Positions 1 through 9,779 are shown, counted from the stretch's first letter. The stretch is 9,779 nt of DNA from a virus (IMGVR_UViG_2740892231_000007); one strand, 5' to 3'. A program made the numbers and translations. Notes: generated from the sequence alone by a model not told the origin.

Positions 1-1242
1 ATGGCGAGAAAAACACCCCCATTAACCACGGTGCAGATCAAAGCAGCCAGACCAGCGGAAAAGGAATACACCCTACAGGACGGCGGAGGGCTTTTTCTCC
101 TGGTCAAACCGTCCGGATCAAAACTCTGGCGATTTTCCTACTACCGGCCATCGGACAAAAAAAGAATATTGCTGAGTTTTGGATCGCTTGATGATGTTTC
201 CCTGGCTGATGCCAGAAAACGCCGTAGCGAGTACAGAGCGTTAATCAGTGCCGGAACTGACCCGCAGGGCCATGAGAAGAAAAAACGAGAGGCAGAGGCC
301 CGAAGACAAGGGAACACGTTCGAAAATGTGGCGGCGGCATGGTACCAGGTGAAAATCAGCCAGAATCTGGCCCCCAACACGATTAAAGACATCTGGCGAT
401 CGCTGGATAAATATGTATTCCCGTTCATCGGCAACACCCCAATAGACACCCTGACCGCTCGCAGGTTCGTTGAGGTGCTTACCCCCATCAAGGAGCGCGG
501 CAACCTGGAAACACTCAAACGGGTTTTACAGCGCGTTAATGAGGTAATGGATTACGCCGCCAACAGTGGGCTGATTGATGCCAATCCGGCTATGAATGTG
601 CGTAAGGCGTTCCCCTCCCCTGTAAAAAAACATATGCCAACAATCCGCCCCGAACAGTTGCCGGAGCTTATGCAGGCTTTATCAGTATCGGCAACAGAAC
701 GGCAGACCAGATTACTGATTGAATGGCAGTTACTGACCGTAACCCGTCCCGCCGAAGCGTCATCAACGCGGTGGGATGAAATCGACCTGGACGCGCAACG
801 CTGGACGATACCCGCCGGACGCATGAAGATGCGCAGGGATCACGTTATCCCACTTTCCGGTCAGGCTATGGCGGTGCTGGAGGCCATGAAACCAATCAGC
901 CACCACCGCGATTATGTTTTCCCGAGTCTGAAAGACCCACGGCAGCCAATGAACAGCCAGACAGCAAACGCAGCATTACGACGCATGGGGTTCGCTGGCG
1001 TGCTGGTGTCTCATGGATTACGCGCCATATTCAGTACAGCAGCGAACGAGGAAGGATTCGAGCCGGACGTAATCGAGGCCGCACTTGCCCACGTCGACAC
1101 TAACGAAGTGAGACGGGCATACAACCGGAGCAACTACATAGAAAAACGCGTGGTGCTTATGCGCTGGTGGGGCGAATTTGTCGAGGCTGCGGCGACGGGC
1201 GTAACCCTCGCCAGTGGTAAAAGGGGTATCCGAGCCGTTTAG
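1..1242 (+). CDS. int: P4-type tyrosine integrase (site-specific recombinase)
   Basis: 413-aa ORF starting at ATG at position 1. N-terminus (KEYTLQDGGGLFLLVKPSGSKLWRFSYY) matches the N-terminal arm domain of P4-like integrases as recalled. C-terminal half carries tyrosine-recombinase motifs readable in the translation: AGRMKMRRDHVIPLS, HGLRA, and RRAYNRSNY with the candidate nucleophile Tyr. Family assignment is from memory, not a search. Confidence 0.9.
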   Translation: MARKTPPLTTVQIKAARPAEKEYTLQDGGGLFLLVKPSGSKLWRFSYYRPSDKKRILLSFGSLDDVSLADARKRRSEYRALISAGTDPQGHEKKKREAEARRQGNTFENVAAAWYQVKISQNLAPNTIKDIWRSLDKYVFPFIGNTPIDTLTARRFVEVLTPIKERGNLETLKRVLQRVNEVMDYAANSGLIDANPAMNVRKAFPSPVKKHMPTIRPEQLPELMQALSVSATERQTRLLIEWQLLTVTRPAEASSTRWDEIDLDAQRWTIPAGRMKMRRDHVIPLSGQAMAVLEAMKPISHHRDYVFPSLKDPRQPMNSQTANAALRRMGFAGVLVSHGLRAIFSTAANEEGFEPDVIEAALAHVDTNEVRRAYNRSNYIEKRVVLMRWWGEFVEAAATGVTLASGKRGIRAV

Positions 1243-1289
1243 CTGTACAGAAAACCAGTAAAAACTACGAAAACCATGTAAAACCGTCG

Positions 1290-1295
1290 TATAAT
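1290..1295 (+). promoter_or_regulatory. Candidate sigma70 -10 element (TATAAT) with upstream direct repeats AAAACCAGTAAAA (1251-1263) and AAAACCATGTAAAA (1270-1283)
   Basis: Perfect TATAAT hexamer at 1290-1295, about 25 bp upstream of the 1320 ORF. No convincing -35 hexamer; two near-identical 13-14-bp direct repeats occupy the -35 region, suggesting factor-dependent control. Confidence 0.35.
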
Positions 1296-1319
1296 TGCAT
1301 CAAATTTAACGACAAGGCC

Positions 1320-1571
1320 GTGAAACATGAAACCGTTAAGATGCAAAAAAATTTCAGATGCAATTGCGACGGGCTGCAACTGGCCCTGATGGTTCAGCAT
1401 GAATTTTGGTCAACCTACGATCCGGAGGACAGAACGACGGCCCCATCAAAAAAACAGGTAGTAGATTTCCTGGTATCCCGTGGGGCATCCAGGAATATGG
1501 CTGAAAGTATCGACAGGGTAGTTCGTCCGGCAACCATGAAGACCGGAGGCAGGCCAAAAAAATGGCGGTAA
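1320..1571 (+). CDS. Hypothetical small protein (83 aa on the ORF track; start uncertain, GTG at 1320 or ATG at 1341)
   Basis: Open frame between int and alpA, ending 10 nt before a strong intrinsic terminator. C-terminus is basic (MKTGGRPKKWR). No strong RBS before either candidate start, so a non-coding RNA is not excluded. No family recognised. Confidence 0.35.
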   Translation: MKHETVKMQKNFRCNCDGLQLALMVQHEFWSTYDPEDRTTAPSKKQVVDFLVSRGASRNMAESIDRVVRPATMKTGGRPKKWR

Positions 1572-1581
1572 CAATCCTCAA

Positions 1582-9240: not shown

Positions 9241-9246
9241 CAACAA

Positions 9247-9268
9247 GGCGGCACCAGCCGCCTTTTTT
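9247..9268 (+). terminator. Rho-independent terminator
   Basis: Stem GGCGGC / GCCGCC with ACCA loop followed by T6 (9263-9268), 7 nt after the capsid ORF stop. Confidence 0.7.
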
Positions 9269-9460
9269 GCGGGTCCTCCTGGTGGGGTGGGCCTGAACAC
9301 GGGGCGGGCGGCGCGGAAAAAAGCGCATTTTTGTGATTTTATCGTCATCATCATCATGTGTGTAACCTATTGTTTTTAATGTGGTTGATGCAAAAAAGAT
9401 GATGATTGTGGTTAATTTTTGTTCGACATCTTTTAGCGTGACAGATTCTTTACAAAAAAT
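9263..9460 (+). repeat. Copy B of the duplicated intergenic module of about 190 bp
   Basis: See copy A. Core CCTCCTGGTGGGGTGGGCCTGAACACGGGGCGGGCGGCGCGGAAAAAAGCGCATTTTTGTGATTTTAT, tail ending TTTACAAAAAAT about 38 bp upstream of the 9498 ATG. Confidence 0.5.
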
Positions 9461-9497
9461 CTGAGCTTGTTTTCTTCACCAGCGCGATGGGGGCACA

Positions 9498-9779
9498 ATG
9501 ACAGAAGCCGAAATACTGGGATTAATCCGCCGCGTCGCCGGAATCAGCCAGCAGGCTGACGAACAGGCCACGCAGCCGGACAGCATGACCGCCGAAAATT
9601 ATGCGCGTGTGGTTGCTGAGGTGATGCGCCGTGATGGTATCCAGCTTAATGATGCGGATATGCGCGACATACGGATCCGCGTTCTGGAAATGCTGGCCTA
9701 CAATCGCCGCGTTGAACTGTATCGGGAGAAAGAAAAAATTACGTACCACTGGAAAAAGCCGGAGCGGTTACGGCGTTAA
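9498..9779 (+). CDS. Hypothetical protein (93 aa), first gene after copy B; possibly packaging or head related by position
   Basis: ATG 9498 with G-rich RBS-like GGGGG about 5 nt upstream; complete ORF ending with TAA at the window edge. Acidic/basic helical-looking translation. Function unknown; any packaging role is inferred from position only. Confidence 0.5.
   Translation: MTEAEILGLIRRVAGISQQADEQATQPDSMTAENYARVVAEVMRRDGIQLNDADMRDIRIRVLEMLAYNRRVELYREKEKITYHWKKPERLRR

Follow-up and report, generated by a model that had tools for sequence, protein, structure and literature searches.

Among PICIs (phage-inducible chromosomal islands) described in Gram-negative bacteria, the closest points of comparison for the element considered here are EcCICFT073, the model PICI, whose helpers are lambda and phi80, and EcCI11128, from Escherichia coli O111:H- 11128. 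Previous studies established that EcCICFT073 is controlled by AlpA and packaged through cos sites (PMC6092414, PMC6739421), and that it requires RppA because its cosB differs from that of the helper (PMC6739421). The AlpA protein of EcCI11128 is included in the AlpA tree of Fillol-Salom (Fillol-Salom 2018). A capsid gene is the commonest late gene of the classical Gram-negative PICIs, being found in 21 of the 29 reference islands (PMC10111431), and capsid-forming PICIs (cf-PICIs) are defined by portal, head-tail connector, HNH, terS and terL genes besides those for capsid and protease (10.1101/2022.09.08.507074; PMC10085698). Here, a viral sequence of 9,779 nucleotides (IMGVR_UViG_2740892231_000007), referred to over its whole length as the window, was analysed, and it very probably comprises the coding part of a nearly whole E. 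coli PICI of about 10.4 kb, of the classical Gram-negative type and of the EcCICFT073/EcCI11128 family, inserted at the 3' end of the tRNA-Pro gene proL. PICIs with capsid genes were already known; what stands out in this one is that a conserved protease-capsid fusion lacking the linker occurs together with two copies of the helper cos.

The window matches E. coli CP027328.1 (locus L009) and two other assemblies at 99.98% identity. In genomes of the CP027328.1 type, as well as in complete genomes about 95% identical, the element is found between yejM/tRNA-Pro (proL) and yejO, with ordinary chromosomal genes on either side. By comparison with the empty K-12 site, the left junction falls within the proL 3' end, while on the right the element stops about 380 bp past the last open reading frame (ORF), for a total of about 10.4 kb. 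Doubled AGTTATACG arm-type repeats occur at both island ends, and a direct-repeat search in loci L001 and L002 returned nothing beyond this motif, the junctions being resolved only via the comparison with K-12. At the right attachment site, attR (L009 20140-20165, outside the window), only CTCTCGTGC of the tRNA-Pro 3' end is kept and about 13 nt of the empty K-12 site are missing; such shortened or damaged tRNA fragments at attR are reported to be typical of PICIs (PMC10111431). The remaining 380 bp or so of the island beyond the window are non-coding and, in the near-identical genomes, no phage-like genes were found past the window, where the island ends at attR beside yejO.

The organization of the element is that by which Gram-negative PICIs are recognized. 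The integrase gene is leftmost, the AlpA-like gene is located just downstream of it, and transcription is mainly rightward, with all large ORFs on the + strand and three small regulators on the - strand. The tyrosine integrase, of the P4/CP4-57 type (1-1242, + strand; Arm-DNA-bind_3, Phage_int_M and Phage_integrase domains; full-length match to NCBIfam PRK09692, E=5e-166), targets the 3' end of proL, and an identical integrase adjoins proL/yejM in many E. coli genomes, being listed in 1752 blocks of the collection. The AlpA-like helix-turn-helix (HTH) regulator/excisionase, of 68 aa (1739-1945, + strand; Pfam AlpA, E=0.003, and HTH_17; phrog_66 and phrog_2790, E~1e-7), has a PHROG match described as 'excisionase and transcriptional regulator' and is presumed to be the master activator. 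Additionally, the island has its own initiator, a RepA-type helicase gene of a type present in the published EcCI11128, with an iteron origin directly 3' of it. Its size of about 10.4 kb at the chromosomal proL-yejO site, without tail or lysis genes, also agrees with the Gram-negative PICI criteria of Fillol-Salom 2018. ORF listing and profile searches, which covered the 78 ORFs of the window that are 40 aa or longer, revealed no portal, terminase, connector, tail or lysis genes; no tRNA genes were found in the window by ARAGORN, nor any known defence genes in a PADLOC scan of ten ORFs.

A sequence-only reading of the window had taken it for a phage satellite rather than a full prophage, had proposed extending the flanks, and had named tail and lysis genes immediately downstream as the finding that would overturn it. 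The satellite assignment held: with the flanks extended, the island of about 10.4 kb is bounded by its tRNA-Pro target and yejO, carries the AGTTATACG repeats at both ends, combines an integrase, an AlpA-like regulator, a replicon of its own and Icd-like and PerC genes, and has no tail or lysis genes downstream. Profile searches also bore out the gene list, namely the integrase, the AlpA-like regulator, the Icd-like and DUF4222 proteins, the RepA-type ATPase with its iterons, the PerC regulator and the protease-capsid fusion, all on the + strand, although 'head genes' in the plural was an overstatement, since there is one head gene only.

EcCI11128 shares with the window the proL/yejM site and essentially the same AGTTATACG-type attachment-site (att) motif, and PICIs at this site with essentially the same repeat motif also include EcCIED1a.1 and EcCIATCC25922 (Fillol-Salom 2018 Table S1). 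It is collinear with the left 6.4 kb of the window, with the same order of small ORFs and identities of 96% for Int, 98.5% for the AlpA-like protein, 100% for the DUF4222 protein and 79% for the RepA-type helicase. The late zones differ, since that of EcCI11128 contains terS and an unrelated 307-aa capsid gene and has no PerC, whereas that of the window contains a first cos-like site (cos1), a small ORF, the fusion of ClpP to the major capsid protein (MCP), a second cos-like site (cos2) and a 93-aa ORF. EcCICFT073, in turn, has the same four-zone architecture, with rightward transcription and an iteron origin after the replication gene, and has in common with the window the Icd-like and YlcI/YnfO genes, four small ORFs, the DUF4222 gene, the post-origin ORF, PerC and the last 93-aa ORF; seven of its proteins, including PerC and that of the last ORF, are 78-100% identical to those of the window. 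On the other hand, its Int is only 24% identical and belongs to another att site, its replication genes are a D5-type primase and an SSB instead of a RepA helicase, and its late genes encode an MCP similar to lambda E, a decoration protein similar to gpD, and RppA, the window being without Rpp. With the left 6.4 kb collinear with EcCI11128 at the same att site and seven genes 78-100% identical to those of EcCICFT073, the earlier suggestion of a distinct satellite lineage does not stand and, as judged from these alignments, the element is a module variant in a known, highly mosaic E. coli PICI family, in which only the late module differs.

The protease-capsid fusion and its two cos-like sites

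The late module is organized around a single gene for a 629-aa protein (7351-9240, + strand), in which a ClpP-like prohead protease, a scaffold and an HK97-fold MCP are fused (NCBIfam NF045540, E=5e-268; Pfam CLP_protease and Phage_capsid_4). The ORF spans 7321-9240, and its start is likely the ATG at 7351, in agreement with annotated relatives of 629 aa; an exact-protein look-up found the protein from this ATG and returned no record from the TTG start at 7321. The catalytic Ser and His of ClpP are conserved in the fusion, and a PDB sequence search with it returned ClpP chains only. In a search of 50,697 phage records, no phage exceeded 52% identity; in full-length comparisons, the fusion is 52-54% identical to the versions of mEp460, CP-1639 and Stx-type phages. 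Among themselves, the four phage versions examined share 75-97% identity. A Pro/Ala/Thr-rich linker of about 30-35 aa between the protease and the scaffold/capsid part is present in all four of these phage versions and missing from both satellite clades into which the relatives in a large protein collection fall, one of 629 aa (90-100% identical) and one of 637/638 aa (62-64% identical). In 12 loci the capsid gene retains its full length and shows no indels; the ratio of nonsynonymous to synonymous substitution rates (dN/dS) is 0.05-0.2 in the most divergent pairs, and the gene is under purifying selection. Its distance from the phage versions, its intactness and this selection suggest that the protein is old, has been maintained and is specific to satellites, and argue against a recent pick-up or decay. 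The cos sites, unlike the capsid gene, track the helper closely. As for the clade of 637/638 aa (L021 10001-12940), it is PICI-borne, and there a TerS-like gene with DUF1441 separates the capsid gene from the 93-aa ORF; this TerS-like gene is 55% identical to a prophage TerS, and the window has cos2 at that position and no terS.

A 115-nt direct repeat, D1 (6721-6835 and 9258-9372), corresponds to the two cos-like sites that flank the capsid gene. The first, cos1 (6739-6891, + strand), is a helper-type cos copy consisting of a cosN-like segment (6761-6785) plus about 100 nt of cosB-like sequence, and over 153 nt it shares 91.5% identity with the sequence lying directly upstream of terS (DUF1441) in an Stx2a prophage; it is about 90% identical to phages CP-1639 and 1720a-02, and about 75% identical to mEp460; the cos core aligns with lambda cosN, ACGGGGCGG...CGCGG. 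The second, cos2 (9258-9372, + strand; cosN-like 9297-9321), is preceded by a terminator-like hairpin, and its positions 9265-9332 (68 nt) match the cos of the Stx2a prophage at 98.5% identity. Both sites are present in all islands with this late module. The cosN-like core of cos2 is invariant among islands and identical to that of CP-1639 and Stx2a prophages; that of cos1 varies between islands (GGAGGGGCG, GGGCGGGCG, GGGAGGGCG and others), with the long cosB-like downstream match kept. Judged by sequence only, the island carries a candidate for the helper-exploiting packaging determinant of a PICI, namely two cos-like sites 91-98% identical to a lambdoid phage cos region. The phages with a matching cos, namely mEp460, cdtI, CP-1639, VT1-Sakai and several Stx2 phages, also hold the closest phage homologues of the capsid fusion.

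EcCICFT073 and the window each carry two cos sites and a capsid homologue of the MCP type of their own helper. In EcCICFT073, the cosN sites are of the lambda type, inverted, and flank rppA, whereas the cos of the window, including cosB, closely copies that of the helper. No Rpp homologue was found, since a tblastn search of the window proteins against EcCICFT073 matched nothing at rppA, and the last ORF has no similarity to RppA. Because the sequence downstream of the cosN of cos1 copies the helper, a specificity switch of the Rpp type is probably not needed, and redirection of packaging by an Rpp (about 144-153 aa, winged HTH) was rejected on these two grounds.

Islands with different integrases and replicons carry this late module, be it at proL, at cspD-clpS, where an identical capsid gene lies behind a different integrase, or inside a prophage terL; the module is complete in 143 of 5426 complete E. 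coli genomes. The identical integrase at proL also occurs with other modules, some with a D5 primase and SSB replacing RepA and one with a lambda-E-like capsid gene and a gpD-like gene replacing the fusion. A sister island (L003 13878-23353, NZ_CP027449.1) lies inside the gpA-like terL of an Stx2a prophage, splitting this gene, and carries the same replication and late modules (RepA 97% and capsid fusion 99% identical to the window). It fits the terminase (A gene) site class of the helper-embedded PICIs (Tommasini, Mageeney and Williams 2023; PMC10111431), from which the window island differs by its chromosomal tRNA site and its integrase, 38% identical to that of the sister island.

With regard to a possible mode of action of the fusion, the window contains a satellite homologue of a helper-type MCP, as described for Ccm. 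SaPIbov5, with Ccm, and PmCI172, with its capsid homologue, resemble the window in being cos-packaged satellites with a diverged helper-capsid homologue and no other head gene (10.1101/2022.09.08.507074; PMC6092414), and Ccm of SaPIbov5 is, in the account given where 10.1101/2022.09.08.507074 cites it, a capsid homologue redirecting capsid size. The likeness concerns this possible mode of action, as the window homologue is a three-part protease-scaffold-capsid fusion known here from its gene alone.

Several points weigh against the reading of the window as a PICI that exploits its helper and makes use of its capsid protein. The AlpA assignment is sub-threshold in Pfam, the match of 1739-1945 being below the gathering score, and the initiator is a RepA-type helicase, not the Pri-Rep primase of model PICIs. 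The cosN of cos1 has one inserted base and one mismatch against the phage consensus, and cos2 combines an exact cosN with a diverged cosB. Induction, helper identity, cos cutting and the role of the capsid protein in this island are all inferred. In EcCICFT073, the capsid gene c1499, of a different MCP type, was deletion-tested for lambda interference, and the causal gene was rppA (c1503); the DNA of that island is packaged in phage-sized heads (PMC6092414; PMC6739421). Moreover, PICI capsid genes were reported to be dispensable for helper-assisted transfer (PMC10111431), and the capsid gene of the window could be dispensable cargo as well.

If so, the element would be the same PICI, with a capsid gene captured from the helper as passive cargo, and it would be packaged via its cos mimic in full-size helper heads. 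This is possible, although on balance unlikely, and it is given weight because the deletion of the capsid gene is tolerated in EcCICFT073 and the DNA is packaged there at phage size (PMC6092414; PMC10111431), and because, by arithmetic, four copies of 10.4 kb add up to 41.6 kb, which corresponds to about 93% of the genome of mEp460 (44.5 kb), and multimers could thus nearly fill a normal head. However, the gene is not a recent capture, its identity to phage versions being at most 52-54% against 91-98% for cos. It is intact in every locus examined and is under purifying selection, its derived linker deletion is common to the second satellite clade, and together with cos1, cos2 and the small upstream ORF it forms a single module that is combined with different integrases and replicons. 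A maintained, satellite-specific capsid protein is thus preferred over passive cargo. A further proposal, tentative and rather improbable, is that the island builds its own, possibly smaller, procapsid shell on the helper portal, filled by the helper terminase via the mimicked cos, which would make it a one-gene 'semi-capsid-forming' PICI. It is suggested by the fact that protease, scaffold and capsid are one polypeptide in the helper phages and that the satellite has its own linker-deleted version of it. If true, such an island would be an intermediate between classical PICIs and cf-PICIs, and the sister clade with its diverged TerS would be a further step.

Other classifications and a proposed life cycle

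Among the remaining classifications, a decayed and immobile prophage remnant, retaining an integrase, a replicon and one head gene, could account for the few phage-like genes and for the damaged attR tRNA fragment, with only CTCTCGTGC common to both ends. It is nevertheless a quite improbable explanation, since the gene order is that of a PICI and not of a lambdoid prophage, none of the ORFs is disrupted, a large number of assemblies contain an identical Int, and the late module occurs at several att sites and in the 143 complete genomes mentioned above. The damage at attR is, as already discussed, reported to be typical of PICIs (PMC10111431).

The sequence-only reading had placed the element with the capsid-forming satellites on account of its capsid gene. 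An island of this kind would build its own capsids, package itself and take just the tails from the helper. Like the window, cf-PICIs of the EcCIEDL933 type have an int-alpA-replication left arm and an island-encoded capsid and maturation protease, and the single fusion gene (7351-9240) covers three head functions, namely capsid, head maturation protease and a scaffold-like segment. However, cf-PICIs, which make their own capsids, have genes for a portal, head-tail connectors, HNH, TerS and TerL as well, and no gene for a portal, a head-tail adaptor/connector, HNH, terS or terL was found in the window or in the final 380 bp or so. At most 5 of the 11 SatelliteFinder components of cf-PICIs are present, at least 9 being required (PMC10085698), and the left arm, like many of the genes, is that of classical PICIs, in which, as stated above, capsid genes are common. 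Therefore, the cf-PICI assignment is refuted on gene content, and the probability left to it is very low.

A P4-like satellite relying on a P2-type helper, suggested by the P4/CP4-57-type integrase, the AlpA-like and Icd-like genes, the tRNA integration site and the size of about 10 kb, is likewise refuted on gene content and of practically negligible probability, because of the SatelliteFinder P4-like core (int, psu, delta, sid, alpA, epsilon and alpha) only int and the AlpA-like gene were found in the window, no psu, delta, sid, epsilon or alpha homologue was detected in Pfam, PHROG and NCBIfam scans, an Rfam scan at E<=1 gave just three chance-level matches and no C4/isrK immunity RNA, and the cos copies match lambdoid and not P2-type phages, so that the 'P4-like flavour' noted earlier is retained for the integrase type, AlpA and Icd and for nothing else in the P4 gene set.

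For the preferred reading, that of a classical PICI with a maintained capsid fusion, a life cycle can be proposed by homology to EcCICFT073, with the cos sequence identity as the part that is directly observed. The cycle would begin when a lambdoid helper with a head module of the mEp460/CP-1639/Stx type (DUF1441 TerS, gpA-like TerL and ClpP-MCP fusion) is induced or infects the cell. The helper would switch on the AlpA-like protein, which would activate the rightward operon and, together with Int, promote excision, and the RepA-type helicase would fire the iteron origin directly downstream of its own gene. The resulting concatemers of the island would then be cut and packaged by the helper terminase, as the cos identity suggests; this would be possible because the island carries two copies of the helper cos region. 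The capsid fusion would most likely co-assemble with the helper capsid protein or replace it, and in this way remodel the capsid, for instance in size, and/or interfere with helper assembly, as Ccm does, with portal, connectors, terminase and tails being supplied by the helper.

Regulatory, replication and right-end genes

Between the integrase and the AlpA-like gene, a small conserved ORF (1320-1571, + strand) without a family match is 92% identical in loci L001, L002 and L027, and a terminator scan placed a terminator-like hairpin 3' of it, at 1580-1601. The three - strand genes follow the AlpA-like gene and encode an Arc-like ribbon-helix-helix protein (2096-2275; phrog_228 'Arc-like repressor', E=4e-6), a small ORF without a family match that is 100% identical in L002 (2495-2722), and a YlcI/YnfO-family small protein (2780-2959; NF041551, E=2e-20) that is 68% identical to its EcCICFT073 counterpart. 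The last of these is transcribed divergently from the operon of the Icd-like gene, a host cell-division inhibitor-like gene (3159-3356, + strand; NF033153, E=2.5e-19) found at the same place in the relatives and in EcCICFT073. Between the two lies a candidate divergent promoter/operator (2980-3071), with palindromic and tandem TGGAATCCAGT-type repeats (inverted repeat I14; tandem repeat 3027-3071) that overlap promoter-like sites on both strands; as judged from these repeats, it is likely an operator/switch region. A 480-aa GTG-started ORF (1914-3356) that spans this divergent region is almost certainly spurious, since it overlaps the three - strand genes and its family match is confined to the last 65 codons, which are those of the Icd-like gene.

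The Icd-like gene is followed by three small conserved PICI ORFs (3353-3586, 3519-4043 and 4036-4269, + strand; phrog_1478, phrog_2512 and phrog_2196), 88-100% identical to those of EcCICFT073. Within the second of them, a run of ten G in the window (3789-3798), against nine in L009, fuses ORFs of 86 and 77 aa into 3519-4043. This fusion could be a sequencing error or the result of slippage; since the fused form is matched by PHROG 2512 (154 aa), databases contain the two forms alike.

The replication module begins with the DUF4222 gene (4275-4574, + strand; Pfam, E=2e-23), whose product is 91% identical to that of EcCICFT073 in addition to its complete identity with that of EcCI11128, and which is always found directly upstream of the replication gene in these PICIs. 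The replication gene itself (4571-5980, + strand) encodes a RepA-type AAA_25 helicase/initiator ATPase (Pfam AAA_25, E=3e-42), annotated in relatives as 'helicase RepA family protein'. Its N-terminal part of about 140 aa (4571-4990) shares 44% identity with the N-terminus of the EcCICFT073 primase, an unrelated enzyme of the D5 type, and in both islands this domain is preceded by DUF4222; a common N-terminal domain thus appears, by alignment, in two different replication enzymes. The predicted origin (5975-6170) consists of two sets of AAAAGTGAGG iterons around an A+T-rich stretch (repeat families D2, I5 and I24), with AAAAGTGAGGMG occurring 5 times in 5980-6160 against 0.07 expected. Iterons around an A+T-rich stretch right after the replication gene are the layout of Gram-negative PICI origins (PMC6092414 Fig. 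2). A conserved PICI ORF comes after the origin (6166-6441, + strand; phrog_1231, E=1e-51; 84% identical to EcCICFT073).

The gene of the PerC-family regulator (6431-6703, + strand; Pfam PerC, E=5e-45; 78% identical to the PerC of EcCICFT073) is followed by an intrinsic terminator at 6709-6726, and the role of PerC is accessory or regulatory, as it is elsewhere among E. coli PICIs. The small ORF that overlaps the start of the capsid gene (7160-7354, + strand; phrog_4934, E=9e-51) has a 38%-identical homologue at the same position in the sister clade and possibly encodes a ribbon-helix-helix protein; its single-sequence AlphaFold model, of low confidence with a predicted local distance difference test (pLDDT) score of 64, gave no Foldseek match in PDB. 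The last island gene (9498-9779, + strand; phrog_1561, E=2e-56) encodes the 93-aa homologue of c1504 of EcCICFT073, to which it is 89% identical, and is present in about 1287 of the 5426 complete E. coli genomes. A PDB sequence search with it returned no match, and its single-sequence AlphaFold model (pLDDT 70) gave just weak, non-significant winged-helix-like Foldseek/PDB matches (E>0.4). Directly after it, just right of the window (L009 19779-19835), five GTGAC repeats spaced by about 11 nt may represent a candidate binding array for the protein of this last ORF.

Meaning for the island family

The analysis corrects a mis-filing, in that a satellite is not 'capsid-forming' simply because it has a capsid gene. 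It also illustrates the modularity of the family, in which at least three late modules occur with one integrase at one site, and each of them seems to correspond to a different type of helper head. The first of them combines a lambda-E-like MCP with a gpD-like decoration gene and a lambda-type cos (L010), and in EcCICFT073, at another site, also includes rppA; the second consists of terS and another MCP (EcCI11128); and the third, that of the window, of the ClpP-MCP fusion and the cos copy.

The conserved satellite-specific capsid fusion represents a well-defined target for understanding how PICIs use captured capsid genes. Additionally, many Stx1- and Stx2-converting phages are among the candidate helpers, and Shiga toxin-producing E. 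coli (STEC) commonly carry the island. If the island interferes with Stx phages, or rides on them, the production and spread of Shiga-toxin phages could be affected. In another PICI, EcCIMP1, a PerC-family protein repressed LEE1 expression (PMC11773190) and, since many of the island hosts are STEC, it is conceivable that the PerC homologue of the window could likewise affect expression of the locus of enterocyte effacement (LEE).

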